NCBI GenBank assembly: GCA_963663165.1 | Contig: OY760175.1 | Coordinates: 1,760,001 to 1,824,000 of the forward strand | DNA from: an uncultured Desulfospira sp. | Lineage (GTDB): Bacteria > Desulfobacterota > Desulfobacteria > Desulfobacterales > Desulfobacteraceae | DNA length: 64,000 nt | Direction of reading: 5' to 3' | Part shown: piece by piece, positions 24,712 through 54,657 of the stretch | Layout of the letters: the number at the start of each line of letters is the position of its first letter | How positions within the stretch are numbered: position 1 is the first letter of the stretch | Notes under the pieces: model-generated | What the model was told of the DNA's origin: nothing | Database searches by the model: none | Seen by the model: only the letters and a program-made list of their open reading frames with translations | Translations under genes and position numbers: made by a program

Positions 24712-25035
24712 ATGGGGGGCGTATAGAATTCGGGGGACATACTTAATTATTGTTAATCTCAATTGAGCTGGGGTCGGACCAAGCTAATAGGCTGATATCA
24801 TAACAAAAACCATCGAAAACCACCCCCAAAACAGGGCTATATTGCACTTTTGGGGGCCAAAAAGAGCAATATAGAAAAATAACATGAAAGAATGCGGGGT
24901 CAGGTGTTACTGGCCAAAATCCTGTCAAGTCCGGCAAGTCCGGGGTCGGACCAGGAATAATAAAATGGAGCTGGGGTCGGACCAGGAATAATACAATAAA
25001 TTAAGTCGATTAAGACCCAAAAACACCCTTAAAAT

Positions 25036-25147
25036 GGGGCTATATTGTGTTTTTTGGCCCCAAAATGTCCATTTTAAGAAAAACGATGTTATAAAAGCCC
25101 ATCCGGTTTCATTTCCTTTTGCAAAAAAGAGTGATAGGGAAAGATGT
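25036..25147 (+). repeat. Rhs 5' leader repeat copy
   Basis: Same consensus as 18236-18359, ending gatagggaaagatgt-ATG. Confidence 0.85.
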
Positions 25148-40911: not shown

Positions 40912-41258
40912 TTATGATAAAAAGGGATTCAGTAAATTTTGAAATAGGTTTCGCTGATGGAGAAGTTATCTCGTATAATCGAAAAAACGATAATTTGATA
41001 ATATCGGTAAAAGCATGGAACGAGAAAACAATCTTGGTTCTTTGCAAAGATTTAATAGGTTTTTTTGATAAGGGTGCTTGGGATATCTCAGATTTTTGTG
41101 AAGTTAAATCTGAAACTAATTTGCTTAGGGAAGTATTGAATAGGCAATTTGAGAAGCCCCCCAAAGATCATGGATATAAAGTGTTTCAGTTTTTAGATAT
41201 CGATGATCAAGTAGTTATAGAAGTTATCTGCTCTGAGATAGAAATTAACATGGAATAA
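40908..41258 (+). CDS. Putative immunity protein for Rhs4 CT
   Basis: Overlaps the toxin stop; small and AT-rich. Confidence 0.7.
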   Translation: MIMIKRDSVNFEIGFADGEVISYNRKNDNLIISVKAWNEKTILVLCKDLIGFFDKGAWDISDFCEVKSETNLLREVLNRQFEKPPKDHGYKVFQFLDIDDQVVIEVICSEIEINME

Positions 41259-41347
41259 AAAGACAGGAGACAGGACGGACAGAGACAGGGGACAAATTAT
41301 GCCCTTTTAATTTTCCACCGTCTTTGCTACCCCACCGCCTGTCATAA

Positions 41348-41584
41348 TTCGAAGGAGATAATCTGGTAAGTCTTAAAACAGTTGATACCACAGGCAAAAC
41401 TTGGCTCAAAAGAATGCAAGACCATATTGATGACTTAGGAACAAGAGGAGCCACAGTTGATGGTCAGCAAGCAAATATGATTTTAGATTTACGAGTACAA
41501 CCTGGTGGTTCTTCAACCGCTCAGTCCTTAATTCAATATGGGCGTGAAAACAACGTAACTGTAATACTCAAGGAATTTAATTAA
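41348..41584 (+). pseudogene. Remnant toxin tip resembling CdiA EC869-type endonuclease toxins
   Basis: Start-less frame FEGDNLVSLKTVDTTGKTWLKRMQDHIDDLG...LIQYGRENNVTVILKEFN*; the stop is immediately followed by ATG 41585. Confidence 0.55.
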
Positions 41585-42304
41585 ATGTCATTAGCTGTAG
41601 AAATTATTTTTAAATATATGGCACTTGAGCCCGTTGTTATCTGGCAAAAGATTATGAAGGTGCATTCAAATATTTTTCCTTCAAATCATAAGGGGACATT
41701 TTATGATAGTGAGATTACCTTTTCTAACGTTGAAAAAGCTATAAAGAAAAAAAACAAACCACATTTTCTTATTGAATTTGATAATGCTGTATTTAGATAC
41801 AGTTCTGTTGGTAACCATGACCATTCTTTTTTAACAATCAAAAAATGTATTAAAAAGATAAACGATACCCATAACTGGGTAAGCCCATTTCTTGTTTGCG
41901 ACGCTTTTGTGCAGGCTCGGGTGTATAATAAGGAATACGAGTTTTGGCAAAATGCATCCGATCCATTAGAATATGAGTCGGCAGGAAGGAAATATGACCA
42001 TCTCCCTATGAAATCTAATGGTCTTCCACCTCCATTGGAGCAAATAATTATTGACACATCTGCAAATCCTGGACGGCGTATACTGCGTGATGGTTACGTT
42101 GAAGCTATCGGATCATTAATGTGGTTGGGAAAACAGTTTTGGCAGTTAACAGGGACAAAGCAAGAAACAGTATCAAATGTAGGTTGGATAAATTGCAAAC
42201 ATATATCATCTAATGTTTTACTCATTAAAGCCAAGGATGATCTCTTTTCAAGCAGTGAGGATGGCAAGCTTCAAGATAAGCTGCGGTCATTGCTTTTTCC
42301 GTGA
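41585..42304 (+). CDS. Putative (orphan) immunity protein
   Basis: Intact AT-rich ORF directly behind the toxin remnant. Confidence 0.65.
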   Translation: MSLAVEIIFKYMALEPVVIWQKIMKVHSNIFPSNHKGTFYDSEITFSNVEKAIKKKNKPHFLIEFDNAVFRYSSVGNHDHSFLTIKKCIKKINDTHNWVSPFLVCDAFVQARVYNKEYEFWQNASDPLEYESAGRKYDHLPMKSNGLPPPLEQIIIDTSANPGRRILRDGYVEAIGSLMWLGKQFWQLTGTKQETVSNVGWINCKHISSNVLLIKAKDDLFSSSEDGKLQDKLRSLLFP

Positions 42305-42311
42305 TTCGGGG

Positions 42312-42484
42312 CCGGTCCGAGCTAACCATAAGGAATCAAACGACTAATTGTTTTAGACGGGGCTTAAAACCATTTTAAACAACCGTTTTGGGCCCCCAAA
42401 TAACCATTTTAAGAAAATCGATGCCATAAAAAGCCCATTCGGTTTCATTTCCTTTTGCCAAAAAAGAATGACAGGGATAACCAT
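42312..42484 (+). repeat. Rhs 5' leader repeat copy
   Basis: Near-identical to 17991-18143 and continuing to the ATG at 42485. Confidence 0.85.
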
Positions 42485-42587
42485 ATGAACTTCCTTACCA
42501 GAAACGGATGGGCTTCACATTTTGCCGTTGTCATCGTTATGATATCGGCCTGTTTGTGTTTCCAGCCGTATTCTTTAGCTTTTGGTG
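42485..42587 (+). pseudogene. Truncated Rhs 5' end (signal peptide only)
   Basis: MNFLTRNGWASHFAVVIVMISACLCFQPYS matches the Rhs2/Rhs4 N-terminus, then breaks at the ggaact stutter. Confidence 0.8.
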
Positions 42588-42660
42588 GGTGGAACTGGTG
42601 GAACTGGGGTTGGAACTGCAGTGCGTGGGGTCAGGTCTTGAAATATAAGATTTTACCAAC

Positions 42661-42930
42661 CTAAGGAAAATACTTATAAATTTCACCCCGATGCAGGAAC
42701 CTGACAAAGCAGACGGTATCCTCTTCAATAACAAGGCCCAGGCGGTAGTCACCCATTCTGATACGGTAGTGGCTGCCCTGGGCCTTTAATTTTTTAAGGT
42801 TCCGGATCGCGTGGATGTCCGGGGCCTCTTCCACTTCCTGTATGATCTGCCGGACCCGGTCGAGCAACGGCCTGTCTGTTTTGCGTTTTTTTAAGTCCTT
42901 GGCAAAACTCTTTTTAAAATCGAGGATCAC
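42661..42930 (-). CDS. RelE/ParE family type II toxin
   Basis: KSFAKDLKK...YRIRMGDYRLG...HRGEIYKYFP. Confidence 0.88.
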   Translation of the reverse strand: MILDFKKSFAKDLKKRKTDRPLLDRVRQIIQEVEEAPDIHAIRNLKKLKAQGSHYRIRMGDYRLGLVIEEDTVCFVRFLHRGEIYKYFP

Positions 42931-43133
42931 GCCCGGCCTTCCAGTATATGAAATATCTCTTCTTTTGTGGCGGTGCCGGTGTTTTGCCCTTCCTGGATCG
43001 CCCGGCTCAGGGCAATGTCTTCCATGGCATCCACGATCATGTCATGGAAGATGTTCTGTTTTTCTTCGAGCATCTCGACAAGCGCTTCCTTGAAGACCTG
43101 TTTGAGCCTGCCCTCATCCATTACGGTCTGCAT
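42927..43133 (-). CDS. Putative antitoxin for RelE
   Basis: 68 aa acidic ORF overlapping the toxin start by 4 bp; EDIALSRAIQEG. Confidence 0.75.
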   Translation of the reverse strand: MQTVMDEGRLKQVFKEALVEMLEEKQNIFHDMIVDAMEDIALSRAIQEGQNTGTATKEEIFHILEGRA

Positions 43134-43152
43134 GGCGTCTCCTTACAAACAA

Positions 43153-43524
43153 TTAGGCCCGGGCCAGTTGTTCAAACTTATATTTTTTGATGAATGCATC
43201 CAGCAGGCTGGTCAGTACCTGCTGGTCTTCTTCGGGAAGCTGCTCTATCGCTTCGATATGCTTGAGAAGCTCCCGGCTTTTGATCTTGTTGATTGCCACG
43301 TTTGCTTCATCCCGCAGCAGGTAATCCAGGCTGACGTCAAACACGGAAGCAATTTTAACGACCATGTTGGTGGGCGGACAAACCACCCCCCGTTCGTATT
43401 TGGATATCAACTGGACATTCACGCCCAGTTTGTTGCCGAGCTGCCCCTGGGACAAGCCCCGGCCCTGGCGCAGTTTTTTTAACTTATCAGGCAATCCGGA
43501 TATAATGGCTTTGCTGTTATTCAT
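43153..43524 (-). CDS. Xre-family HTH repressor
   Basis: LKKLRQGRGLSQGQLG...ISKYERG...VSLDYLL; AAGGAGG RBS before ATG 43524; divergent from the primase operon. Confidence 0.88.
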   Translation of the reverse strand: MNNSKAIISGLPDKLKKLRQGRGLSQGQLGNKLGVNVQLISKYERGVVCPPTNMVVKIASVFDVSLDYLLRDEANVAINKIKSRELLKHIEAIEQLPEEDQQVLTSLLDAFIKKYKFEQLARA

Positions 43525-43684
43525 AAGCTCCTCCTTGCCTGTATTCTCTATAAATATGGGGCTGTGTGCAAACATATTTTTTCTTGACAATAACTTTAAA
43601 GGATACTAACTAAGCATATAAAGTTATGCTTTTTGTCGTAAAAAGCAAGTTTATTTTGATATCAGGGATGTTTTTAGAAAAGAA

Positions 43685-43726
43685 GGCCATCAACCCGAAC
43701 TCGCCAAAGTCAACCGGTTGATGGCC
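43685..43726. promoter_or_regulatory. Stem-loop in the Xre/primase divergent intergenic region
   Basis: ggccatcaacc-N20-ggttgatggcc, a perfect 11 bp stem. Confidence 0.5.
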
Positions 43727-43830
43727 GAAAAAAACAAATCACAAAAGGCAAAGCCCGTTTGTAACCGTTTTCTTTTTCTATCATATCTCCCGGTAAAAAT
43801 TCAATCTGTGTAATCAAGGGAGGTGAACCT

Positions 43831-44142
43831 GTGACATTTACCCAACGGTTCTACGAGATCGCCTGCATGTTCCCGGTGATGACCAGCAAAGGCGTACAGC
43901 AAGGCGATATCCCCGGCATCAGGAAGGATCGGTTCTGTGCTGATGACCTGGCCGGGTTTGTCTATGAGGGCGGCGGCAGGGCCTGGAGCACCGGAGAAAA
44001 GCTTGTATTAGAATTTCTGCTGAATCTGTACAACCCGGGAGCCTTTGACAAGTTCAACATCGGCTTTGCCATGAACGTATGGGACCCCACCCATATGAGA
44101 GCCTGTTTTAAGGCCATGGCAAGGATTTACAGCGGAGAGTGA
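43831..44142 (+). CDS. Hypothetical protein of the element
   Basis: Strong RBS (ggaggtg) before GTG; first gene of the primase operon. Confidence 0.7.
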   Translation: MTFTQRFYEIACMFPVMTSKGVQQGDIPGIRKDRFCADDLAGFVYEGGGRAWSTGEKLVLEFLLNLYNPGAFDKFNIGFAMNVWDPTHMRACFKAMARIYSGE

Positions 44143-44182
44143 CCCATGAACAGACAACGCCTTCGGAACAGCGGGATAAAAC

Positions 44183-46855
44183 ATGATAGAAAAAGAGACC
44201 ATAGAACGGATCAAAACATCTGTAGACCTTAAATCCCTGGTGGAGTCCAGGGGTATCGAACTCAAAAAAAACGGCAAGGGCTGGTTCGGCCTGTGCCCCT
44301 TCCATGATGACAAAACCCCGTCTTTATCCGTCACCCCGTCCAAAAACGAATGGCACTGCTTTGGTTGCGGTGCCGGAGGAGATGTGATCCGGTTTGTGGA
44401 GATGTTTGACCGGGTGGATTTTAAAGAGGCGGTTAGACGGCTTGGCGGTGATGAGGTAGAAAAAACCGCAGTTAAAATAAAAAAAGAGGACCCGGCCCCG
44501 AAACTGACACCCGGCCATATCAAGCTGTTCAACCGGGTTATTGAATTTTACCACGAAGCCTTTGCCGAAGATGGCCGGGCACGGCAGTACCTGAAAGGAC
44601 GGGGCATCACGGATAACTCCCTGCCTTCCGACCACCGGATCGGCTTTGCCAACGGCTCCCTGCTGAACGTGCTGCCCAATGATGCCAAAATCACAGGGCA
44701 GTTAAAAGATCTGGGCATCCTGAACGTCAACGGGAAGGAGCATTTTTACGGCTGTGCCGTGTTCCCGCTCTACGATTTTAACGGGAACCCTGCCGGGATG
44801 TATGGCCGCCGTATTGACGGCATGACCCAAGGCGCCGGCCATCTGTATCTTCCCGGCAGCCGGGAAGGTCTGTTCAACCGCCAGGCAGCCAAGGCCCACA
44901 AAAAGATTATCCTTACAGAATCCGTTCTGGACAGCCTGACCCTGATCAATGCCGGGTTTAAAAACACCATCCCGTGTTACGGCACCAACGGCCTGACCCA
45001 ATCCCATATCAAGTGGCTTACACAAACCCAGGTAGAAACCGTCTACATATGTTTTGACGCAGACGAGGCAGGCCAGGCCGCCACGCCTGTGGTTGGTGAG
45101 CACTTAACCCAAGCCGGGATCACCACGCACCCCATAACACTTCCCAACGGCCAGGACATCAATGATTTTTTTCTTTTAACCGCCAATCCCAAAGAGGGGT
45201 TCAACGCCCTGATTGGTCAGGCCAACCCTGCGGTTAAAAAAGAAAAGGACCTGAAAGTTACCAAAACAGATTTTGGCTTTACCATGGCGGTTGCCGACCG
45301 CAGATACGAGGTCCGGGGGATCAGCAAAAAAGGCGGCAAGCTTAAGGCCACGGTCAAGGGCATTGACCCTAAAAAACGCATGCACGTAGACACCGTGGAT
45401 TTTTACTCGGCACGGTCCAGGACCTTTCTTCTCAAGGGACTGGCTGACCTGTTCGGCGCAGACGAGGCTGCCGTTACCCAGGACCTTGCCAAGCTGACGG
45501 AACAGGCCGAACAAAACCAGGTTCCGGATCAGGACAACAAGGCTGCCACAGCCATGACGTTCCAGGACAAGACCGAAGCCTTGCGGTTCCTGGAGAACCC
45601 GGACATGTTCGCTGAGATCCTCACCGATTTTGAAACCCTTGGCTACACCGGAGAAGAGATGAACAAGCTGCTCTGCTACGTGGCGGCGATCTCCCGCAAG
45701 ATGGATCACCCCCTGTCGGTCATGATCCAGTCCAGGTCCGCCGCAGGCAAGTCCTATCTCCAGGACACGGCCCTGTCCCTTGTGCCCAAAGAAGATTATA
45801 TCAAGTACACCCGGCTGACGGACCAGGCCCTGTTTTACACGGGCAAGGAGAGTCTGAAGCACAAAATCCTTGCCATTGAAGAACTGGACGGCATGAACGG
45901 GGCCATCTACTCTATCCGCAGCATCCAAAGTTCCAAGGAGATCACCATTGCCTATACGGGCAAGGACAGTGCCACCGGCGAACAACGAACCATGGAGAAC
46001 AAGGTGGAAGGGCCGTTGATGGTCTTTATCACCACCACCCAGGTGGACATTGACGGAGAAACCGCATCCAGGTTCGTGTTCATCTCCATTGACGAATCCG
46101 AAGACATGACCAAAAAAGTCCTGGCCAAGCAGCGGCAGACCCACACCATGCAGGGCATGCTCAACAAGCTCAAATCAGAAGAGATTATTAAAAAGCACCA
46201 TAATGCCAACCGGATGATGCGGCCCCTTCATGTGTTCAACCCCTATGCCGAATTGCTGACCTTTACCAGCAGGTCTTTAAGGGCCAGAAGGGATCACACC
46301 AAATACCTGAACCTGATATCAGCCGTGGCCTACCTGTTCCAGTACCAGAAAAAGGTGCAGACCTTTGAATTTAAGGACCAGTCCATTGAATACGTGAACG
46401 TCACCCTGGCCGACATAGAAAAGGCCAACACCATTGCCAACTACGTTTTGGGCAGAAGCCTGGATGATCTAAGCCCCCCTTCAAGGAAACTGCTCATGCT
46501 GATCCGGCAGATGTGCCGGGACAAAAAAGAAGACTTCCATTTTAACCGCCGCCAGATCCGGGAGTACAGCGGATGGAGCGACTTCCAGGTCAGGACCCAT
46601 ATTCGGCAGCTTGAAGACCTGGAGTACATCTACTCGCTCATGGGCAAACGGGGCAAAGAATACGTTTACGAACTGGCCTACAACGGCGAAGGAGACGACG
46701 GTAAACCCTTTGTGATCGGGCTTACAGACATTAAGCAGTTAAAAGAAAAAGCCAAAGAAGCCGGTATCACCGATGACAACGAGGGGGAAAATTACAACTA
46801 CGAGCATGAAGGCGTTAACTACGAGGGTGGTTCAAGCCCCCATAGAGGGCACTAA
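44183..46855 (+). CDS. CHC2 zinc-finger/Toprim DNA primase fused to P-loop NTPase (primase-helicase)
   Basis: CPFHDD...CFGC zinc finger; TESVLD and FDAD Toprim motifs; SRSAAGKS Walker A-like; IEELD Walker B-like. Confidence 0.88.
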   Translation: MIEKETIERIKTSVDLKSLVESRGIELKKNGKGWFGLCPFHDDKTPSLSVTPSKNEWHCFGCGAGGDVIRFVEMFDRVDFKEAVRRLGGDEVEKTAVKIKKEDPAPKLTPGHIKLFNRVIEFYHEAFAEDGRARQYLKGRGITDNSLPSDHRIGFANGSLLNVLPNDAKITGQLKDLGILNVNGKEHFYGCAVFPLYDFNGNPAGMYGRRIDGMTQGAGHLYLPGSREGLFNRQAAKAHKKIILTESVLDSLTLINAGFKNTIPCYGTNGLTQSHIKWLTQTQVETVYICFDADEAGQAATPVVGEHLTQAGITTHPITLPNGQDINDFFLLTANPKEGFNALIGQANPAVKKEKDLKVTKTDFGFTMAVADRRYEVRGISKKGGKLKATVKGIDPKKRMHVDTVDFYSARSRTFLLKGLADLFGADEAAVTQDLAKLTEQAEQNQVPDQDNKAATAMTFQDKTEALRFLENPDMFAEILTDFETLGYTGEEMNKLLCYVAAISRKMDHPLSVMIQSRSAAGKSYLQDTALSLVPKEDYIKYTRLTDQALFYTGKESLKHKILAIEELDGMNGAIYSIRSIQSSKEITIAYTGKDSATGEQRTMENKVEGPLMVFITTTQVDIDGETASRFVFISIDESEDMTKKVLAKQRQTHTMQGMLNKLKSEEIIKKHHNANRMMRPLHVFNPYAELLTFTSRSLRARRDHTKYLNLISAVAYLFQYQKKVQTFEFKDQSIEYVNVTLADIEKANTIANYVLGRSLDDLSPPSRKLLMLIRQMCRDKKEDFHFNRRQIREYSGWSDFQVRTHIRQLEDLEYIYSLMGKRGKEYVYELAYNGEGDDGKPFVIGLTDIKQLKEKAKEAGITDDNEGENYNYEHEGVNYEGGSSPHRGH
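46775..46837 (+). repeat. Three 21-bp-spaced iteron-like repeats in the primase 3' end
   Basis: gacaacgag / aactacgag / aactacgag, with CGAG at 46780, 46801 and 46822. Confidence 0.45.
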
Positions 46856-46958
46856 GTGATTTTTCTTTTAACCGCTAAAAAGCCCTTATACCAAGGCATT
46901 GAAACGAATATACCCCCAAGTTCGAGGCAACCGGGGCAAAAGTAATTAAGGAGCAAGC

Positions 46959-47150
46959 ATGACATTTATAGAAGCCGTAAGGGAACTTGACCTGAAAGAT
47001 CCGTTGACCCGGGAGCCTGTACGCCCAAGTGAACTGATACGGATACTCAAGGAAGATGTTGTTCTGTCTGTGGAGCGGCCCGGCTCCTGGGAAGGGTCGA
47101 ATATGCTGGAGGTACTGACCAGCCACGGCTTTTTTACCCATCAGGATTGA
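46959..47150 (+). CDS. Small hypothetical protein
   Basis: AAGGAG RBS; fills the gap between the primase and the first recombinase. Confidence 0.6.
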   Translation: MTFIEAVRELDLKDPLTREPVRPSELIRILKEDVVLSVERPGSWEGSNMLEVLTSHGFFTHQD

Positions 47151-47161
47151 AAGGAGGGAAT

Positions 47162-48124
47162 ATGGTTAAAAACCTGTTGTTCCGGTTCCGGGAAAACCTC
47201 AGGGTGACAGGCAGAAGCCCGTCAACAGTAAAGGCATATGCCATGCACACAAGGGATTTTTTTGATGTCATGGAGATCAGGGCTGTTAAAAAGGTTACCA
47301 CGCCTGTTATAGAATCCTGGATCGCAGGGCTGCGTGACTCAAAGAGTGCCAAGGGCAAGCCTTACAGTGATGCAACCATCCAAATTAAGATACGCTCAAT
47401 CAAGCGGTTTTTTGAGTTTCTGGAGAGGACCAACATTATCTTTATCAATCCTGCAGAGTTTATCAAGGAATCCAAAGTAAAGACCCCGATCAAGCCGGCA
47501 CTGACTTTTGAAGAAGCGAAACGGATACTGGACCAGCCAAACTTAAGCACAATAACCGGCATCCGGGACCGGACCATACTGGAGGTTTTTTACACCACCG
47601 GGATACGGCTCAACGAGTTATGTTCCCTGACCATTTATGACGCAGATCTGCAGGGCGGTGTGCTGCGGATCAACAAGGGCAAAGGAGCCAGGGACCGGGT
47701 GGTGCCCTTAGGCAAACATGCAGTCAAGTTCCTGCGGGAGTATATCTCCAAGGTCAGGCCTAGGTTTGCCAAAAAAAACAGGACCTGCCGATCCCTGTTT
47801 ATGGGTTCTTTGGGCAAGCCCGTGTCCAAGGCGGTTGTAGCCTTCATGATCCTTAAAAACCGGAAAGCGGCTAAAATAAAAAAACAAGTTACTGCCCACA
47901 CGTTCCGCCACACCTTTGCAACGGTGCTGGTAAAAAACGGTGCGGACATCCGGGCGGTCCAGAAGATGCTGGGCCATGTGGATATCAGAACCACCCAAGG
48001 TTATATCCGGTCCCTGGGCCTGGATATTAAAAAGGAACACCGGAAAACCCATCCAAGGGAAAAGGACAAAGAAAACATCACCAACCCCAGGATAAAAGGG
48101 ATTATGGATCATCATGAAAGATAA
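47162..48124 (+). CDS. XerC/D-like tyrosine recombinase 1
   Basis: GIRLNE, HTFRH, LGH and TTQGY catalytic motifs; AAGGAGG RBS. Confidence 0.92.
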   Translation: MVKNLLFRFRENLRVTGRSPSTVKAYAMHTRDFFDVMEIRAVKKVTTPVIESWIAGLRDSKSAKGKPYSDATIQIKIRSIKRFFEFLERTNIIFINPAEFIKESKVKTPIKPALTFEEAKRILDQPNLSTITGIRDRTILEVFYTTGIRLNELCSLTIYDADLQGGVLRINKGKGARDRVVPLGKHAVKFLREYISKVRPRFAKKNRTCRSLFMGSLGKPVSKAVVAFMILKNRKAAKIKKQVTAHTFRHTFATVLVKNGADIRAVQKMLGHVDIRTTQGYIRSLGLDIKKEHRKTHPREKDKENITNPRIKGIMDHHER

Positions 48125-49049
48125 TCCGTTCAAGCCGTATATTGATCAGTTCCGGCTGGCCCTGAAGGTCCGGAACCTGACCGGCAAGACCATTGAACAA
48201 ATCTGTTGGAAGCTGGGCAGGTTCACGGCCTGGCTGATGGAAAGCCAGGTCTTGTCTGTTGACGCCATCACCAAGGATGCGGTCAGGTCCTACCAGGTGG
48301 AGCTTTACCAGGCAATCAATGCAAGAGGCAGGCAGAACGGCGTGGCCTATCAAAATTCTATGATGTCTGCGGTCCGGCAGTTCACAAGGTTCCTGTATGA
48401 AAGGGACTTTATCGTGTCTGACCCGGCAAGGGACATCCAGTATGCCAAAATACCTAAAGCCCTGCCCAAGGGGATATTGAGCCCGGCGGAAGCCAGAAAG
48501 ATCATCCATGCCCCTGATATTACCAGCGTAATCGGATACCGGGACCGGGTGATCCTGGAGGTGCTTTATACCAGCGGTATCCGCAAAGAGGAGCTAAACC
48601 ACCTGACCCTGGCCGATGTGGACTGCCATGACGGTTTTTTGAGGATAGACAACGGCAAAGGGCAAAAGGACCGGATCGTCCCCTTGGGCCGGATCGCCTG
48701 CCGGTATCTTGAAAATTATATCACATCCGTCCGTCCGGAACTGATCAGGGACCCGTACAACACCCACCTGTTCCTATCCCTGAGAGGCAACCGGCTGTCT
48801 AAAAACGTGGTATGGGCACTGGTGAAAAAATACGCCAAAAAGGCAAAGATACGAAAAAACGTCCATCCCCATACGTTCCGGCACTCCTGCGCAACCGGCA
48901 TGTTGAAAAACAAGGCGGATCTAAACACCATCCGCAAGCTTTTGGGCCATACATCATTGAATACCACACAGATCTATACCCACCTGAATATCACAGAGTT
49001 AAAGGCGGTTCACAAGCAATGCCATCCCCGGGAGAAAGACAGAGAGTAG
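48114..49049 (+). CDS. XerC/D-like tyrosine recombinase 2
   Basis: GIRKEE, HTFRH, LGH, TTQIY; overlaps recombinase 1; both end in HPREKD. Confidence 0.92.
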   Translation: MKDNPFKPYIDQFRLALKVRNLTGKTIEQICWKLGRFTAWLMESQVLSVDAITKDAVRSYQVELYQAINARGRQNGVAYQNSMMSAVRQFTRFLYERDFIVSDPARDIQYAKIPKALPKGILSPAEARKIIHAPDITSVIGYRDRVILEVLYTSGIRKEELNHLTLADVDCHDGFLRIDNGKGQKDRIVPLGRIACRYLENYITSVRPELIRDPYNTHLFLSLRGNRLSKNVVWALVKKYAKKAKIRKNVHPHTFRHSCATGMLKNKADLNTIRKLLGHTSLNTTQIYTHLNITELKAVHKQCHPREKDRE

Positions 49050-49052
49050 TTG

Positions 49053-49541
49053 TTTTTTCTTTTAACTGCGGTTTTTAAACAAGGATCGTCTCCGGTGCTC
49101 GGGCTTCACCCCTGGCGGGGTTCCGCTCCCTGCGCCCGGAGCCGGCCCTATTTTATGCCCACCCAACCACCCTTTAAATGCGGATGGCTGCGCCGCCTTA
49201 TTTTATATCCCCGCCCGCCCGGCGGAAGGGCTGTTCCGGCGCTACGGGCACGCCGGTCGCTCCACATTGCGTAAAGTCGTTGCGTTCGGCGTGTCCGATA
49301 AGGCGGCCTTATCAGACACGGCCGGTCCGTCACAGGTCTTGCAAACTGCCGCAATACCCGCGCCGGACCGCCTTCCCTCTCTACACTAGACATAACAAAC
49401 ATTATGTCTCCTTTGCGCAATGCTCCGCTTCCTTTGCGCCCTGCGCACCTCCACAACCCTTCCGCTCCCCTTAAAAAAGGATGAAACCCCATTTTATATG
49501 CCGGCTGACGCCAGCACCAAGCATGCAGTTAAAAGAAAAAA
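49053..49541. other. GC-rich non-coding segment closed by a perfect 17 bp inverted repeat
   Basis: ttttttcttttaactgc (49053-49069) / gcagttaaaagaaaaaa (49525-49541). Confidence 0.6.
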
Positions 49542-49728
49542 ACCATCCTCAATTTTATTTTTAACAGCCTGGGAAATCCTTTGATCAAAGGCTCAATCCA
49601 TAGTATGAATCACCAAAGAAGCAGTGGCAGAGTTTGGTTACGCTGAAATTAATTTTAGGTAAAAAACAGTTCTTTTACAACTTGGATAATCCGGATGGAA
49701 GGCTTGCCAATAAAGAGATTGCGCTTGG

Positions 49729-50619
49729 TTGGCAAAATCGTCTAATGGGATTATTTGTTCAAACAATCCATTGAGGTTCACAGATCCTGATGGCTTGATG
49801 GCGAAAAATACTGTTCAATGGATGTCTGATCATCCTATCCCTGGTCCGGACGACCTTTTATCGAGCGGCTTGCATTATCTATCAGATTCATTGGGGCAAC
49901 AAACAACTACAAATTGGGGGGATCAATTAGGGGCAACTATTTTAAAAACAACTGTTGATGTTGGCGCGGGTATTGTTGATTCTCCTGAAGCCTTGGCAAA
50001 TCAGACTTATGAATGGTCCAGAGATATTACAAATTGGAATAAATTACCAATATTGGGGACTAATGCTGTTGCTATGGCTAAGACAACCTCGGATTTTATT
50101 AATAATCCAAACTGGACAACAGGTTCTCAAATGGTTGGGGCATATTCTAGTGCGGTTTTATTAACTATAGGGGGAACGCAGCTCTTAAAAGGGCCTATTG
50201 GAAACATTGGGTCTAAAAATAAAGCAATAGGACTTGTTAAAAATGAATATCAAAATCTTATTTCTTCTGGGATGAGTCATCGAGAAATTGGCCCTGCCAT
50301 TTCAATCGCTCGAGATATGAAAGCTGGAAAATTTAGCCAAATTTATCGCAATGATTCGCTTGGCAACATGCCTTCAAATTTAAGCGATCCTATTGCCATC
50401 AGACTTTACAGTGCACCAGAGTATATAAAAACAAAAGGAATTGCTTCTCATTCTGAAATATATGCCGTAGATGAATTGCTAAAAGCAAGACCGAAAGCTG
50501 CGCTTGAAGATATCTCGGTGTTTACAATGGAGGTTAAAAAAGCATCATTACGCGGAACTTATAAACCTGCTTGTCCACATTGTGCTCATTTATTAGAAGG
50601 AGTTGACTACATTAAATAA
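49729..50619 (+). CDS. Orphan Rhs CT: YwqJ-like deaminase toxin
   Basis: Rhs homology begins at 49756 (CSNNPLRFTDPDGLMAK); zinc deaminase motifs HSE and PACPHC. Confidence 0.82.
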   Translation: MAKSSNGIICSNNPLRFTDPDGLMAKNTVQWMSDHPIPGPDDLLSSGLHYLSDSLGQQTTTNWGDQLGATILKTTVDVGAGIVDSPEALANQTYEWSRDITNWNKLPILGTNAVAMAKTTSDFINNPNWTTGSQMVGAYSSAVLLTIGGTQLLKGPIGNIGSKNKAIGLVKNEYQNLISSGMSHREIGPAISIARDMKAGKFSQIYRNDSLGNMPSNLSDPIAIRLYSAPEYIKTKGIASHSEIYAVDELLKARPKAALEDISVFTMEVKKASLRGTYKPACPHCAHLLEGVDYIK

Positions 50620-50634
50620 TATGGATTACAGACA

Positions 50635-51033
50635 ATGACAAATAGAGTTAATGAAAATTATTTGGATTTCGATGGTGACCAAAGTATTCTTGACGGGAAA
50701 CCATTTACAGGCATTGGTTTTCTTGAACATCCTGATCATTCTCTGAAAAGAGAGTTCAACTATTTAGATGGATTTGAACATGGCTTATGCCAAGAATGGT
50801 ACTCCAACGGGCAGCTAAAGCGCAAATGGACAGCAGTACGTGGACAAGCAAAAGGAACAGTATATCAGTGGCATGAAAACGGAGAAAAAAAATCGGTAGG
50901 AGAATACGATTTCGGCGTTGAGACAGCATATAAGGAATGGGATGAAAAAGGGGAATTAATTATCGATAGAAAAATCGATGAAAATTCAAATCTTTATAGC
51001 TATTTAATGGATATGAAGGAGAAGCGGGGTTAA
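50635..51033 (+). CDS. YwqK-family (MORN-variant repeat) immunity protein
   Basis: DGKPFTG, HGLCQEWYSNGQLK and WHENGEKK repeats; directly after the deaminase. Confidence 0.85.
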   Translation: MTNRVNENYLDFDGDQSILDGKPFTGIGFLEHPDHSLKREFNYLDGFEHGLCQEWYSNGQLKRKWTAVRGQAKGTVYQWHENGEKKSVGEYDFGVETAYKEWDEKGELIIDRKIDENSNLYSYLMDMKEKRG

Positions 51034-51050
51034 ATACGGTGAAAAATAAG

Positions 51051-51551
51051 TTATAAAGGGTTTTTGCTAATTTGATCAACGTGTTTTAAGAGAGTCGGGA
51101 TTCTATATTTTCCGTGCATTTGAGAAATATGTTTTGCGGCAAGTTGCTGATCAATACCTGCGGCCGTAATATAGAGGGGTTTTTTACTTTTCCCTCTAAC
51201 GATTTTATCAGCCATATCGGATTGTTTGAAGCTGTTTTTAGCAACTCCGATTATTGGGGTTTTTTGATTCAATTTATTGTATAGATGAGCTCCTAAGCCC
51301 GGAGATTGGTGGATATCTAACCATACATAGCCATCAATTAAAATAAACTCAGGTGATTCAGGGATAAGTTTTAAGACTTTAAGAATACACGGCAGCTCTC
51401 GGAGATAAAATTGCCCTGGGACATACGGTTCGATTTTAAAAACTGTTGTATGGAATTGAGCAGTAGGGCTTGAGTCAGTCCATTCTTTAAACAATATGCA
51501 TGCGGCAACTGCCTGGTGATCGTAATAATGAACGTCTACACAAGCTATCAT
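51051..51551 (-). CDS. Endonuclease V family protein
   Basis: CVDVHY, YVPGQFYLRELP, LIDGYV, GLGAHL, IGVAK, RIPTLLK. Confidence 0.85.
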   Translation of the reverse strand: MIACVDVHYYDHQAVAACILFKEWTDSSPTAQFHTTVFKIEPYVPGQFYLRELPCILKVLKLIPESPEFILIDGYVWLDIHQSPGLGAHLYNKLNQKTPIIGVAKNSFKQSDMADKIVRGKSKKPLYITAAGIDQQLAAKHISQMHGKYRIPTLLKHVDQISKNPL

Positions 51552-51620
51552 CAGGTCTTATTTACCTTTTTTGATTTTAGCGTTAATTCGGTCGGTTTTG
51601 TACCGGTCCCGGGTAACGCT

Positions 51621-51847
51621 AAATATAAGATTTTACCAACCTAAGGAAAATACTTATAAATTTCACCCCGATGCAGGAACCTGACAAAGCAGACGGTATC
51701 CTCTTCAATAACAAGGCCCAGGCGGTAGTCATCCATCCTGATACGGTAGTGGCTGCCCTGGGCCTTTAACTTTTTAAAGTTCCGGATCGCGTGGATGTCC
51801 GGGGCCTCTTCCACTCCCTGTATGATCTGCCGGACCCGGTCAAGCAA
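51621..51847 (-). pseudogene. 5'-truncated duplicate of relE
   Basis: Near-identical to 42641-42867 (offset 8980); lacks the N-terminal codons and the antitoxin. Confidence 0.85.
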
Positions 51848-51975
51848 TGTCATAGATTGGCCAGGATTGGGGGGCGGGCCAAGCCAATCATCTGATATTA
51901 AATGTTACGTGCCAAAATCCTGTCATACTTTTTACCAAATTACAGAGCACAATTAAAGGGTAAACGCCCAAAACA

Positions 51976-52101
51976 GGGGCTTAAAACAAGCTTAATTCAA
52001 TGTTTTTGGCCCCCAAATGTCCATTTTAAGAAAATCGATGTTATAAAAAGCCCATCCGGTTTCATTTCCTTTTGCAAAAAAAGAATGATAGGGAAAGATG
52101 T
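51976..52101 (+). repeat. Rhs 5' leader repeat copy
   Basis: Near-identical to 18236-18359. Confidence 0.85.
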
Positions 52102-52488
52102 ATGAATTCTACTGCCAGAAACGGATGGGCTTTTCATATTGCCGTTATCATCATGTTATCGGTCGTTTTATGGTGTTTGCCATGTTATTCCGGCACTTCC
52201 TGCGTGTGCCGCAGCGAGGCCGTATCCCCCTCAACTACCACCGTCGGCACCATCTCACTGGATACAAGCACTTTAAGCTCTACTACCCAGACCGACTGGA
52301 AAGATAAATACACCACCCTGGTCAATGGTGTAGAAACAATCGTTAAAAAAGCCTCAGAAACCATGAACGCGGCAAAGACCGCCCTGGGCGACCCGGTAGA
52401 CATGGTAAGCGGCGAGTTCTACACGGAAGAAACCCCCGATTTCCTGATTAAGTCCCGGGGGCTCGATTTATCCATTATCCGAAAATAC
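52102..52488 (+). pseudogene. Truncated Rhs 5' end
   Basis: Signal peptide plus TTQTDWKDKY...GDPVDM...SIIRKY, nearly identical to Rhs1 11770-11985; cut at a stutter site. Confidence 0.88.
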
Positions 52489-52881
52489 ACGCGACTTGGG
52501 GTCACACGCGACTTGGGGTCAGGTCTTGCGCGACTTGGGGTCAGGTCTTGAAATATAAGTTTTTGATTTGGGGTCCCGGTTTTATTTTTAACTGCCTTGA
52601 AAATCCCTTGAAGGGCACCATGTTGAGCGAAGCGAATAAACCATCGTTGAGCAGAGCGAATAAGGCAGGACGCAAAGTAGACCCCTTTAAAAAAGTGGGC
52701 CTACTTTGCATGTCCTGTCACCCTAACGCCCTATCTTTTTATGGCTTAACCTGATTTTTTATATTTGAATATAGTTAAAATATATTTTCGTATAATAGCC
52801 TATAGAAAAACAGAAAATGATATAATTATCTATATTAACAAACAATTATAGATAAGAGCAAGCCAAGGGCCAGGTCTAAAT

Positions 52882-53268
52882 TTACCAAATAACCTCCACC
52901 GGATATTTGGCAAACATGGCATCACTCGTGATCACAGGTATCTGCCCGGTTATGCCCTGGGCAATGATCAGGCGGTCAAAGGGATCTTTGTGATGAAACT
53001 CAAGGTTGATAACCTTTGAGAGGTGATCCAATTCGACAGGCAGTACATCGATAGCGTGTTCTTCAAGCTGGGCAGGCATGAGCCGGTCAAAAGAATCAAG
53101 CAGTTCAAGTTTGCCCAGGCTTGTTTTAATGGCAATTTCCCACAGGCTTGCGGCGCTTAAAACCAGATCATTGTTAAAATCGAGCATAATGTTGCGGGCG
53201 TTAAGGCTGAGCCGGTCGCTTCCGGAAATGAACCACAAGAAAGCACTTGTATCAAGCAAAACCCGCAT
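52882..53268 (-). CDS. vapC: VapC/PIN-domain toxin
   Basis: LLDTSAFLW, SLWEIAIK, HKDPFDRLIIAQ, ITSD. Confidence 0.9.
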   Translation of the reverse strand: MRVLLDTSAFLWFISGSDRLSLNARNIMLDFNNDLVLSAASLWEIAIKTSLGKLELLDSFDRLMPAQLEEHAIDVLPVELDHLSKVINLEFHHKDPFDRLIIAQGITGQIPVITSDAMFAKYPVEVIW

Positions 53269-53489
53269 TACATATATTCCTTAAAATCGTCCAGGGGGGC
53301 GTCGAAGTCGTCTGCCATTTTGATCAGCCCTTTTGCCGAACCGAACACCCGTTGTTTTTTCTTTCTGGGGATGCCGACAATTTTAGCAATCGGCAGTCCC
53401 TGCCTTGTAATGATAATGGCTTCTTCAATATTCTGTTCAAGAATTTGGGGAAGCTGCTGTGTAATCTGGCTGATATCTATATTTTGCAT
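53268..53489 (-). CDS. Phd/YefM-like antitoxin
   Basis: IIITRQGLPIAKIV...RVFGSAKG...DDFDAPL; coupled to vapC. Confidence 0.85.
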   Translation of the reverse strand: MQNIDISQITQQLPQILEQNIEEAIIITRQGLPIAKIVGIPRKKKQRVFGSAKGLIKMADDFDAPLDDFKEYM

Positions 53490-53516
53490 AATCTGCCTTC
53501 CTGTATAAATATGGTG

Positions 53517-53906
53517 TTATCTTGCATCGTCCATGGCCATAATGCCTTGCGTTCTGTTTTTAAGGATCATGCCGTCGAGTATCCTGATAACCGCCTCTTT
53601 ATCTTCGGCCTGGAATCGTTCAAGCTCCCTGAACCGCTTTGCCAGGCGGGTATCATTGAGGTTGCCCATGTCGCTGTGATCCCCGATTAGCAGATAGTCC
53701 AGAGTGGAGTCAAGCAGTTCAGCCAATTGTATGAGTTTTTCTAATGACGGGATATGCAATCCCATTTCATATTTATTGAACTGGCTGAATCCGATATCAA
53801 CCATGGCGGCCAACTCTTTTTGTGTCCATCCTTTTTGATTGCGAAGTCGTTTAAGGCGTTCTCCAAAAGCTTTTCTTACCTCTTTGTCCATCATGTCGAA
53901 AATCAT
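53517..53906 (-). CDS. Xre-family HTH repressor (paralogue of 43153-43524)
   Basis: FGERLKRLRNQKGWTQKELA...NKYEMG...TLDYLL. Confidence 0.88.
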   Translation of the reverse strand: MIFDMMDKEVRKAFGERLKRLRNQKGWTQKELAAMVDIGFSQFNKYEMGLHIPSLEKLIQLAELLDSTLDYLLIGDHSDMGNLNDTRLAKRFRELERFQAEDKEAVIRILDGMILKNRTQGIMAMDDAR

Positions 53907-54657
53907 CCTTATTTAAATTTTTGTTCTTGATTATAGCACGGGTTTGAAAAACGCCCTCGACAGCAATCTAATATTTAGATATCAAATATCCACAATAAGG
54001 ACAAGGTTTTTACTTGACAAGCTTTTTAAAAACGGAGAGCAATAGAAAAATGCCATCAGCCTTATGACTTTGGCGGGTCCCGGAATATGGACTGGTCGGG
54101 ACTGGTTCGGGACTGGGGTCGTGGTTCGGGACTGGCGGGACTGGGGTCGGGCCATGCTAACGAGCTGAATTAAAGGAAAATACTCTCAAAAGCACCCGTC
54201 TTTTTGGTCTTAAATCGATGTTTTTGGGGGCAAAAAGGGCTGTTTAAGGGGCAGTCAGGTTTTTTAGGGATTGATTTGGGGGGCAGACCAAGCAAACTTT
54301 TATAACCAACCGTTAATAAAAATAATTTTTTGAGGGCAAGGTAAAAAGCGGCTCTTAGCAGTCACATTTCGGTACCCCCAATAAATCATGTAAGGAGCAT
54401 TTATGATCAATTCAATCCAGATTTATCCGAAGAACATGGGAAACCATGGCACGCGCTAACCGACATTTGGTTCAAAAATCGGCCTCAGAAAGGCATATTA
54501 AATTCAGGCGGTGGATTTGGGGCTCACACCCTGTTTGATTTCTCCGCTTTAATGGGGTAAAGTACGCATTTCTTATTGTTTGATGCGTTTAACCCTAACC
54601 ATAGGATCAGCCAACCCCAGTGACTGTAACCCGTTCCTTTACAAAAGCAACCATCAA

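Follow-up and report, generated by a model that had tools for sequence, protein, structure and literature searches.

Mobile elements of Desulfobacterota that probably exchange Rhs toxin tips at a conserved core-end site

The stretch of DNA analyzed (64,000 nt, the window) contains an element backbone with a relE/relB pair, an xre gene, a primase gene and two tandem tyrosine recombinase genes, followed by an Rhs toxin tip (Table 1). Open reading frame and family calls gave the same gene order and strands, from relE to a second relE, as a first-pass annotation of the window. The xre gene is found in the same place in nearly all relatives of the element. Two small ORFs match no family in Pfam, NCBIfam or PHROGs, and show 97% (103-aa ORF) and 100% (63-aa ORF) identity with their counterparts in L009, L010 and L011 (Desulfospira genome). 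The primase has 4733 relatives, many of them on contigs of 4-12 kb, and no close relative in the viral collection. It had been described as a primase-helicase; the DnaG-type primase holds, but no helicase match was obtained, as the C-terminal 500 residues match no family in Pfam, NCBIfam or PHROGs. Recombinase 2 shows 36% identity with recombinase 1, whose top NCBIfam matches are XerC/XerD models, all under their cut-offs. The element encodes no cell-to-cell transfer functions and carries no phage or satellite genes.

Table 1. Features of the element copy and its flanks in the window
Feature	Position	Strand	Remarks
Truncated Rhs 5' end (a)	42455..42583	+	start codon and ~40 codons; directly left of the element
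Junction J1	42584..42656	.	short stuttered repeats, one palindromic-repeat arm, 18 nt in common with J3
ParE/RelE-type toxin gene	42661..42930	-	PF05016, 34.8 bits, cut-off 23
RelB-like antitoxin gene	42927..43133	-	PF25734, 58.1 bits, cut-off 27
Xre-type HTH regulator	43153..43590	-	PF01381, 56.3 bits; divergent from replication/recombination genes
103-aa ORF	43831..44142	+	no known family; kept in closest relatives
DnaG-type primase	44183..46855	+	zinc ribbon, catalytic core, Toprim and long C-terminal part
63-aa ORF	46959..47150	+	overlaps the start of recombinase 1
Tyrosine recombinase 1, Xer-like	47147..48124	+	PF00589 (Phage_integrase), 144 bits
Tyrosine recombinase 2, Xer-like	48114..49049	+	PF00589 (Phage_integrase), 150 bits
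490-nt module	49053..49541	.	G+C-rich, strongly self-pairing; closed by perfect 17-nt inverted repeat I7
Spacer up to recombination site	49553..49747	+	start resembles segment B start (repeat D7)
attP-type core	49748..49769	+	8-nt arm, 6-nt spacer (C-S codons), 8-nt arm (N-N-P codons)
Rhs tip	49756..50619	+	core-end motif, entry/linker part, deaminase-like toxin domain
Immunity candidate, 132 aa	50635..51033	+	directly 3' of tip; MORN-variant repeats as in YwqK-type proteins
Endonuclease_5 (endonuclease V) gene	51051..51551	-	third cargo member; PF04493, 55.4 bits, cut-off 23.4
Stump of second element copy	51607..51847	-	junction J3 and 3' 211 nt of second relE
Second relE	51641..51853	-	5'-truncated
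Rhs upstream region and truncated Rhs 5' end (b)	51864..52491	+	~132 codons; DUF6531
Junction J2	52492..52574	.	three stuttered copies, one palindrome arm, terminator-like hairpin remnant
Segment B, 283 nt	52575..52857	+	detached in window; within element in relatives, between immunity gene and relE

Downstream of recombinase 2, 679 nt (49050-49728) are without a convincing gene, in agreement with the roughly 700 bp of non-coding DNA first annotated there. The 490-nt module in this region shows fold z values of -6.1 on the plus strand and -11.1 on the minus strand, and has no Rfam match. It is absent from some relatives, and a second copy with 91% identity is located at positions 1259579-1260041 of the genome.

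The tip ORF (49729-50619) reads C-S-N-N-P-L-R-F-T-D-P-D-G-L-M-A-K, with the cysteine codon at 49756. Likeness to Rhs cores was correctly said to start at this motif without any core upstream: the five Rhs core ends of the window resemble one another, and the 90 nt upstream of the tip motif show no likeness to them. The long core ascribed to the other orphan was also recovered, with ~230-250 core residues retained before its motif (32694-34118). Across 48% of the query, the tip shares 66-70% identity with the ends of RHS-repeat proteins (1161 and 1507 aa). Furthermore, the tip matches YwqJ-deaminase (PF14431; E 3.8e-5, 24.3 bits) under the cut-off of 25.9, and the immunity candidate matches MORN_2 (PF07661; E 5.4e-6), likewise under the Pfam cut-off. 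The EndoV gene has a G+C content as low as that of the tip. From its sequence, the cargo is a YwqJ/YwqK/EndoV-type triad of deaminase tip, immunity protein and repair nuclease. A toxin-immunity-EndoV triad is known from B. subtilis, where the available part of the report (PMC13648612) describes a deaminase toxin, its immunity gene and an endonuclease V gene in one cassette, the YwqJ-YwqK-EndoV operon; however, that toxin is an LXG protein of the type VIIb system on a Gram-positive chromosome, whereas the present one is an Rhs tip on a mobile element and its toxin and immunity assignments come from matches under the cut-offs.

The 22-nt site pattern at the start of the tip has its sole match in the window here, which is also the sole match in the 6.74-Mb genome. 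By alignment, the right arm of the site corresponds to the N-N/D-P codons of the conserved Rhs core end, and the left arm holds four near-invariant bases inside an otherwise non-coding spacer across 20 aligned element sites. In these 20 sites, 6-8 of the 8 left-arm positions agree with the inverted right arm, compared with only 1-4 of 8 in 13 host Rhs ends of the window's own genome (both counted by hand). A second clade, with recombinases ~41-43% identical, has its site at the P-G-Q-Y-Y-D codons, with 13-nt arms and a 6-nt spacer. Its arms match at 7-11 of 13 places in ten element-type sites and at 2-4 of 13 in three host-type sites; four of the seven loci scanned gave no match to the second-clade pattern.

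The window shares its backbone (42657-49780/49787) at ~90% identity with L009, L010 and L011; the likeness breaks off within the core-end motif and picks up again in segment B, which shows 94% identity with L009 (7470-7751), L010 and L011. Between the motif and segment B, the Desulfospira copies carry a different cargo, consisting of another tip (123 aa) and an immunity candidate of 158 aa. In L011, a 2010-aa ORF with RHS repeats crosses the junction in frame into the element tip. The L011 element has 8,391 nt, an 8,344-nt unit plus a 47-nt direct repeat present at both ends, and behind the right repeat lies a different, displaced tip whose relatives end RHS-repeat proteins. The three variants of the free form lie in the left repeat and the three others in the right one, which places the exchange within the first 29 nt. 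L010 has the same tip as L011, fused to a second Rhs paralogue. In L017, L044 and L012, an Rhs core end is fused in frame at the left junction, and the tip beyond the right junction bears a stub. G174, a second-clade locus with the P-G-Q-Y-Y-D motif, has an Rhs of 4093 aa fused at its left side and orphans at its right side, which brings the in-frame left-side fusions to six loci.

Short-stub tips were surveyed in 28 metagenome loci. Tips located 17-41 residues after a stop were found behind recombinase 2 in all ten loci with at least 700 nt of sequence there, in four of eight with 300-700 nt and in none of ten with less; L017 and L022 also have one. Rhs core-end likeness lies beside the element in 19 of 21 loci with flanks, L025 and L034 having no adjoining Rhs, and the genome of the window contains only 14 Rhs-type core ends in its 6.74 Mb. 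The short-stub and flank counts agree with the expectation of the first-pass annotation that the recombinase-distal end of homologous elements abuts Rhs codons. In the same genome, all four places with backbone sequence (the window, 1.25 Mb, 3.25 Mb and 4.42 Mb) adjoin Rhs tips, and a relE-relB-xre module stands alone at 4420399-4421531. Relatives in Acidobacteriota have one recombinase, and some of them carry long-stub orphans or other cargo. L046 contains two tips, each preceded by the same 172-nt spacer and site, and G067:C1 contains six. The elements that adjoin each other in L050 and L022 are distinct (81% and 61% alike, respectively), so that the apparent 6.8-kb period of L022 was rejected as a true repeat.

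These loci belong to a widespread family of 7-9 kb integrative elements of Desulfobacterota, whose gene set comprises Xre, often RelE/RelB, a DnaG-type primase and two Xer-like recombinases, followed by a promoterless Rhs tip and an immunity gene. We consider it likely that recombination takes place at the final conserved codons of Rhs genes, where the element adds its own tip and displaces the resident one; an in-frame swap of this kind, already proposed from the window, has apparent products in the integrated copies L011, L010, L017, L044, L012 and G174. The element tip starts with a short untranslatable stub holding the 22-nt site. When this site recombines with the corresponding codons of a chromosomal rhs gene, the whole element would come to lie behind the Rhs core, as in the finished products of relatives. 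The reading frame of the core would then continue into the tip as its new C-terminus, with the immunity gene of the tip arriving alongside, while the resident tip and immunity gene would be shifted behind the element as a stub-bearing orphan. Repeated integration would give arrays of elements and orphan tips. The exchange is presumably performed by the two recombinases, and we infer that the element replicates as a circle. The circular form postulated earlier was not recovered: none of 59 contigs has matching ends, and in run X7, the one that contains this stretch, the contigs lack the joint from ~51620 back to 42641, a weak result since contigs drop rare forms. No Rhs core is fused to any tip in the window, and the 6-nt spacer of the window site is not shared by any of the 13 further Rhs-type core ends in the genome, so that the suggested fusions of Rhs1-4 cores with the deaminase tip are not expected without a matching target.

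It is unlikely, in our estimate, that homologous recombination through the short conserved coding stretch places the element and that the recombinases serve otherwise, for example in multimer resolution. According to the available part of one report (PMC3967940), homologous recombination moves orphan Rhs tips, and junction identities of 47 nt in L011, 24 nt in L044 and 92 nt at 89% in G148 could support RecA-dependent exchange; however, those of L017 and G174 (19 nt each) and L012 (12 nt) are short. Homology-driven orphans would also grow their stub, which is minimal in all 20 first-clade sites. Furthermore, conservation extends to the non-coding left arm, which is inverted relative to the right one; the likeness between left and right junctions begins with the spacer's first base or the base before it (L011, L017 and L044); and in both clades, which differ in their sites, the site lies directly 3' of the recombinase genes. 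These features speak against placement by homologous recombination.

Clearly less probable is a generic element that landed in a recombination-prone Rhs array, without any swapping, where the tip at 49756 would be a host orphan whose core was lost by neighboring deletions. The window copy is indeed flanked by deletion junctions, stuttered repeats and truncated Rhs genes, and the solitary relE-relB-xre module fits such a history, but the sequence upstream of the tip is element sequence common to L009-L011 right up to the motif, and stub-bearing tips lie behind the recombinases in every relative with enough sequence. Together with the left and right junctions, including the in-frame fusions of six loci, this contradicts a trapped element at the level of the family. 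That the repeats and tandem copies are a misassembled multicopy plasmid and the Rhs link a chimeric join is scarcely credible: the arrays L009 and L010 lie at the start of a chromosome record and the end of a contig, and many relatives are on short contigs ending just past recombinase 2, but L011 is a lone copy bordered on both sides by 7 kb of unique sequence, the window comes from a one-contig genome and X7 contigs cover its junction regions without other letters, the tandem partners of L050 and L022 differ, and in-frame fusions are found in independent assemblies.

In the window copy itself, the backbone and the site are intact. The relE direct repeat (42641-42867 and 51621-51847; 227 nt, 97% identity) had been taken to delimit one circularly permuted unit; the repeat and its spacing of 8,980 nt stand, but the unit is better read as a complete copy with cargo followed by the 227-nt stump of a second, 97% identical copy. 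This order matches the tandem or serial arrays L009/L010, L050 and L022. The truncated Rhs 5' end (a) is preceded from 42313 by an Rhs upstream region with blastn matches to the upstream regions of Rhs2-4, and its translation resembles the Rhs2-4 N-termini (repeat family D19). To the right of the element, the truncated 5' end (b) itself occupies 52097-52491, and 29 nt of junction J1 recur at 52536-52564. The placement of segment B in relatives is given by the order in L011 and by a joint in run X9. Neither the truncated Rhs 5' ends on both flanks nor the detached segment B had been noticed before. Most likely, deletions reduced a serial or tandem insertion in one of the Rhs genes of this array to the window copy, which may be immobile here, given that it has no fused core, a detached segment B and no matching 6-nt spacer.

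Comparison with known systems draws on the available parts of the reports cited. P4-like satellites and tycheposons (10.1101/2020.12.28.424599) resemble the element in size, in a recombinase adjoining the attachment site, in a primase-type replication gene, in cargo behind the site and in tandem arrays at the target. However, they insert at tRNA or other genes and leave the gene end as it was, whereas this element has two Xer-like recombinases and targets a toxin-domain coding boundary, altering the protein. Orphan Rhs/CdiA cassettes (PMC3967940, PMC3482391) share the serial displacement of C-terminal toxin domains with their immunity genes and the silent tip arrays downstream; classical orphans keep hundreds of nucleotides of core and remain within one locus, in contrast to a stub of 12-41 residues, an inverted-repeat site, own recombinases and presence in several genera. 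The rAID of Bacteroidales (PMC12247911) and polyimmunity loci by XerC/D (PMC3482391) also show a tyrosine recombinase beside short cassette arrays related to polymorphic toxins, with conserved intergenic motifs, but they gather orphan immunity genes for defence, and a replication gene, fusion to an Rhs core and a defined in-gene site are not reported in the parts available. IMEX at dif (PMC10210955, dif sequences) use Xer-type enzymes and a short site with two arms around a 6-nt spacer; they rely on host XerCD and chromosomal dif, whereas this element has its own recombinase pair, under the XerC and XerD model cut-offs, and a coding motif as target. Integrons share promoterless cassettes, a tyrosine recombinase acting at a site by its gene, and cassette arrays (cf. 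L046 and G067:C1). Integron-integrase models give the two recombinases 123 and 113 bits (cut-off 265), and no attC-type sites are present in the element; unlike in integrons, the cassette is expressed as a protein fusion and not from a promoter, and the platform itself is mobile.

The element in the window contains a complete backbone, from relE to the second recombinase and its site, followed by an Rhs C-terminal toxin domain (tip). All the genes listed in the first-pass annotation were present, each on the strand assigned to it, and all backbone genes of this copy are open. Their order is shown in the table, together with the Rhs array that precedes the element and the places of the 6.74 Mb source genome that carry backbone sequence.

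Features of the window and related places of the source genome (window positions unless marked genome)
Feature	Position	Strand	Content
Rhs1	9214-17511		single 2765-aa ORF; N-terminus about 800 residues longer than in Rhs2-4
Rhs2	18330-24308		
Rhs3	25034-31003		
Orphan (tip without its own Rhs core)	32694-34118		
Rhs4	35044-40911		element region comes next
Truncated Rhs 5' end, left	42455 to about 42583		about 40 codons remain
Stuttered junction, left	42584-42649		
ParE/RelE-type toxin, RelB-like antitoxin, Xre regulator		minus	
103-aa ORF, DnaG-type primase with 500-residue C-terminal part, 63-aa ORF, recombinases 1 and 2 (tyrosine recombinases, predicted Xer-like)		divergent from relE/relB/xre	
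10-nt motif	44468, 44698, 45174, 45230, 46540, 46735, 46866, 47282, 49060, 49525, 49559, 52586	both	follows a T-run; some copies within the primase gene
490-nt module	49053-49541		G+C-rich; closed by a perfect 17-nt inverted repeat
Interval behind recombinase 2			679 nt; no convincing gene
22-nt site	49748-49769		
Core-end motif NNPxxxxDPxGL	49762-49797		residues identical to those of Rhs4
Tip ORF, immunity candidate, endonuclease V gene, 5'-truncated second relE			in this order
Truncated Rhs 5' end, right	52097-52491		
Stuttered junction, right	52483-52568		
Segment B	52575-52857		283 nt, detached from the element
PIN toxin, Phd/DUF2281-type antitoxin, second Xre-type gene	52882-53906	minus	right of segment B
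Backbone place 1	this window		
Backbone place 2 (1.25 Mb)	genome 1251314-1261171		degraded second-clade relative: Xre, primase shortened to 253 aa, recombinase gene interrupted by a block of three inserted ORFs, 349-aa ORF, copy of the 490-nt module (91% identical) and, after it, an orphan tip that begins at P-G-Q-Y-W-D codons, with an element-type left arm
Backbone place 3 (3.25 Mb)	genome 3245552-3254804		scar behind an Rhs gene: relE end (48 nt) and segment B, with an Rhs-immunity pair on one side and a long-core orphan on the other
Backbone place 4 (4.42 Mb)	genome 4404656-4421700		lone relE-relB-xre module, 94% identical, behind two tips; ORF after it, which we take to resemble an IS200/RAYT-type transposase; bracketed by another short repeat
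Stuttered junction elsewhere	genome 2879900-2880030		

The RelE/ParE-RelB pair shows both family domains in adjacent overlapping genes (PF05016 and PF25734, above cut-offs). The primase contains a zinc ribbon, a primase core and a Toprim domain (PF01807, PF08275 and PF13155), all above cut-offs, and scores below the equivalog cut-off of chromosomal dnaG. Its residues 400-890 matched no helicase family in Pfam or NCBIfam and two PHROGs of unknown function; PF27228 is the precomputed listing for relatives of this primase. Both recombinases belong to the tyrosine recombinase superfamily according to PF00589 (144 and 150 bits) and a SAM-like N-domain (PF02899/PF13495), and their catalytic residues were read by eye from the translations. 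Recombinases 1 and 2 score 236.5 and 251.6 against the NCBIfam equivalog cut-off of XerD (329.6) and 222.2 and 247.1 against that of XerC (335.2), and are predicted to be Xer-like proteins distinct from XerC/D. Neither reached the cut-off of the IntI-type integrases (TIGR02249, 123 and 113 bits, cut-off 265). By their position and by analogy with XerC/D, the two enzymes would catalyse the exchange of tips.

Relatives of the primase are found by the thousands, many of them on contigs of 4-12 kb. In a Desulfospira genome, the stretch 42657-49780/49787 recurs whole at about 90% identity in three loci (L009, L010 and L011), whose likeness to the window ends within the core-end motif and picks up again in segment B, which in relatives lies inside the element, between the immunity gene and relE. 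Between these two points the Desulfospira loci show a different tip, of 123 aa, and a 158-aa immunity candidate, so that the break in likeness coincides with the tip-immunity cassette.

The integrated form is seen in L011, a single copy with unique flanks. Its 2010-aa ORF shows nine RHS-repeat matches and continues in frame, through A-L-N-N-P-V-M-F-I-D-P-L-G-L, into the tip of the element; there follow the immunity gene, segment B, the genes from relE to recombinase 2, the spacer and, again, a 47-nt repeat. The length of the element is one unit of 8,344 nt plus this repeat. Behind the right repeat lie a different, displaced tip, whose relatives form the ends of RHS-repeat proteins, and further small ORFs. 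The three variants of the unit's own site stand in the left repeat and three different ones in the right, so the exchange lay within the first 29 nt. The tip that in L010 is fused to a second Rhs paralogue is the one of L011, and at least two tandem copies lie behind the fusion. Three other loci (L017, L044 and L012) show on the left an in-frame fusion of an Rhs core end with a tip and on the right a tip with a stub, a short remnant of core; the tracts identical at both junctions measure 19, 24 and 12 nt, respectively. The Rhs core of L017 contains one internal stop. In G174, which belongs to a second recombinase clade, the left side carries a fused Rhs of 4093 aa, and orphans lie behind recombinase 2. 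A core direct repeat of the attL/attR type, with host on one side and element on the other, is found in L011 (47 nt), L017 (19 nt), L044 (24 nt) and G174 (19 nt); in the window the element-side junction alone is present. Neighbours in tandem may differ (81% alike in L050 and 61% in L022), and such partners are different elements, as expected from serial integration. In addition, a contig of X12 (another sample of organism A) and a minor, low-depth contig of X7 (the read run that holds the window stretch), when aligned with 44907-49104, show the deletions 44907/45146, 45515/46566 and 47065/48818, the same as L012 of a Desulfobacterium genome; all three represent a degraded relative.

Alignment of 20 element-side junctions of the first clade defined a site of 22 nt, in which two 8-nt arms enclose a 6-nt spacer. 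The N-N/D-P codons form the right arm, of which the left arm is an imperfect inverse: counted by hand, the arms match at 8/8 positions in three sites, 7/8 in ten and 6/8 in seven, and in L039 one position pair is altered on both arms. Four left-arm bases show little or no variation, though the element stretch there is untranslated. At 13 chromosomal Rhs ends of the source genome, also counted by hand, the arms match at 1-4 of 8. In L011, L017 and L044 the left and right junctions become alike from the first spacer base or from the base before it. This anatomy is that of a tyrosine-recombinase core site, in which strand exchange would take place in the spacer. The window site is the sole match to the pattern in the window (0.12 expected) and in the source genome. 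A core site with inverted arms lies next to a recombinase gene in these 20 first-clade and in 10 second-clade sites. The second clade (G174, G148, G067 and the 1.25-Mb relic), with recombinases about 41-43% identical to those of the window, shows 13-nt arms and a 6-nt spacer, and its target is the P-G-Q-Y-Y-D codons, about 55 residues further up. Left arms of element type match there at 7-11 of 13 positions (10 sites) and those of host type at 2-4 of 13 (3 sites); in four of the seven loci scanned, the second-clade pattern gave no match.

The proposal that homologous elements consistently abut the end of an Rhs core came out positive in a check of 28 metagenome loci found with recombinase 2 (L065 was excluded, its gene running off the contig). 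Where at least 700 nt are available behind recombinase 2, a short-stub tip is present in 10 of 10 loci and begins 17-41 residues after a stop codon; it is present in four of eight loci with 300-700 nt and in none of the 10 with less. These tips all differ from one another and matched no Pfam family. Likeness to Rhs core ends adjoins the element in 19 of the 21 loci with flanks, the exceptions being L025 and L034. The whole source genome has 14 Rhs core ends, and all four of its places with backbone sequence adjoin Rhs tips. A tRNA scan of the window found none, so a tRNA target is absent. The Rhs at 3.25 Mb was considered as a carrier of the Desulfospira element's tip and rejected, the motif alone being shared and the remaining tip different.

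Distant relatives in Acidobacteriota (L023-L032), with a primase 33-40% identical and one longer recombinase, are arranged in tandem, with periods of 7.5-10.8 kb, and most of them adjoin Rhs core ends with long stubs; L025 carries other cargo, ORFs of 151 and 411 aa, without Rhs nearby. Tips without backbone between them were also observed, two in L046 (4289-6971) and six in G067:C1 (L124 and L125), each behind an element-type spacer and site; in L046 a 78-nt segment is present before the first cassette and again after the second. These arrays suggest that single cassettes can move or that backbones were lost.

The likeness of the window tip to Rhs cores starts, as annotated in the first pass, at the C-S-N-N-P codons (49756), and the preceding 90 nt show none. 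The tip sequence gave three matches, two of which, with 66-70% identity across 48% of the query, are the ends of RHS-repeat proteins 1161 and 1507 aa long; the shared part is the front half of the tip, so the likeness does not cover the deaminase part. The putative toxin domain resembles the YwqJ-deaminase family with an E-value of 3.8e-5 and 24.3 bits, just under the Pfam cut-off of 25.9, and H-x-E and P-C-x-x-C, which we take to be deaminase-type motifs, are visible in its translation. The 132-aa immunity candidate starts 16 nt behind the tip and scores 26.5 bits with MORN_2, below the cut-off of 29.6; endonuclease V, the third cargo gene, has a G+C content as low as that of the tip. This triad of deaminase-like tip, MORN-variant ORF and endonuclease V matches the YwqJ-YwqK-EndoV operon of B. 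subtilis, as described in the accessible part of a 2026 preprint (PMC13648612). The tip would stay silent until fused to an Rhs core.

The element had been taken for a circularly permuted unit of 8,980 nt. The relE direct repeat behind this reading is present (227 nt, 97% identical, 8,980 nt spacing), but the stretch is better read as a complete backbone, the site and the cargo, with a 227-nt stump of a second backbone behind them. Arrays elsewhere have the same internal order, and the cargo is therefore read, most simply, as the tip of a now-deleted downstream copy in front of which the complete copy was inserted. No Rhs core is fused to any tip in the window copy. Both truncated Rhs 5' ends, which the first-pass annotation had missed, finish in the same 29 nt, one arm of a palindromic repeat that the genome carries about ten times. 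Segment B is 9.9 kb away from its usual partner and stands behind another cut Rhs gene, and the 6-nt spacer of the window site is shared by none of the 13 other Rhs-type ends of the source genome. We read the window copy as intact in its parts and stranded by deletions. Beside the palindrome arm, the deletion-like junctions of the table and the inner letters of a joint in X7 (42464/51864) show three to five stuttered, progressively longer copies of the start of the arm, each with a locus-specific prefix, and look like templated, slipped repair synthesis at a broken palindrome.

We infer that a circular, primase-dependent form of the element exists. The predicted circles were not recovered from Logan contigs, from which runs X1-X6 (shares under 0.2) were left out: no circle joint was found in the contigs of X7, and none of 59 contigs of relatives has matching ends. 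Three candidates were rejected. The X7 joint of 42464 to 51864, considered as an excision product, is a paralogous region upstream of Rhs2; the joint of 52857 to 42657 in X9, a run of organism B, is the normal order of segment B and relE, as in L011; and L022, considered as a circle with a 6,823-nt period, has overlapping ends that are 61% alike and thus represents two elements in a row. A further joint, of 40264 to 51865, starts inside the Rhs4 core-end motif; with a depth of 6.4 and 32 nt on its shorter side, it is too weak to be interpreted. The element carries neither transfer nor capsid genes, and the viral collection gave weak Toprim matches alone and no close relative of the primase.

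Altogether, comparison among relatives supports, for the family, a model of integration that would swap Rhs tips: one backbone occurs with different tips, fusions are in frame, tips are displaced, direct repeats mark the junctions, and an inverted-arm site is conserved in two classes. Tip-swapping is probably not operating from the window copy. Judged on sequence, we rate the element as one that would combine an integrative element with polymorphic-toxin cassette exchange. Its backbone logic is that of small recombinase-primase elements, whose target differs. Its outcome is that of orphan Rhs cassettes, which lack both the vehicle and the minimal stub of window-type elements. In the accessible parts of their descriptions, rAID (PMC12247911) and polyimmunity loci (PMC3482391) join a tyrosine recombinase with toxin-related cassettes, but these are immunity genes only. 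Integrons share the cassette logic and differ in enzyme class and mode of expression. The literature search, outside of which most subscription journals fall, found no described element that replaces Rhs tips by site-specific integration.

A wider, integron-like reading is offered tentatively and, with all its parts taken jointly, we regard it as possible but rather doubtful. Rhs tips would be gene cassettes and the platform itself would be mobile; the recombinase pair would recombine any two sites with the same 6-nt spacer, whether in elements, Rhs genes or the fronts of orphan tips. Single tip-immunity cassettes and whole elements would move between Rhs genes, strains and genera, the enzyme pair would have written the stub-bearing orphan arrays as cassette arrays (six tips in G067:C1, two in L046), and at least two recombinase clades would independently target two different conserved Rhs coding motifs. 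Since the immunity gene arrives with the toxin, integration would make the host a killer of uninfected kin, and if this reading is true such killing drives the spread of the element.

To our knowledge, homologous recombination with orphan cassettes of unknown origin is the sole current explanation for the acquisition of new Rhs or polymorphic-toxin tips across species. A dedicated vehicle, with the conserved boundary of the toxin domain as its attachment site, would provide the missing source of tips, each with its immunity gene and even a repair gene, and would also account for the short-stub orphan arrays. As a mobile element that changes a host protein by replacing a domain in frame, it would be a clear example, and the 22-nt site with two small enzymes could give a tool for programmed C-terminal swapping.

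Two further features of the element were observed. The 490-nt module folds far better than shuffled sequences (z of -11 on the minus strand and -6 on the plus strand), and three copies of it are known, about 90% alike, one of them in the otherwise distant 1.25 Mb relic, while several relatives do not have it. An Rfam scan of 41000-54000 at E up to 1 gave no match, and the module could represent an RNA, a structured site in the DNA or a small insertion. All 12 copies of the 10-nt motif in the 64-kb window fall within 42000-53000, against a shuffle mean of 0.085, and the motif is found at corresponding places in L009, L013, L015, L017, L022 and L046. One inverted pair lies 190 nt upstream of the recombination site and one copy opens segment B; a regulator, an accessory factor or a replication protein may bind the motif.
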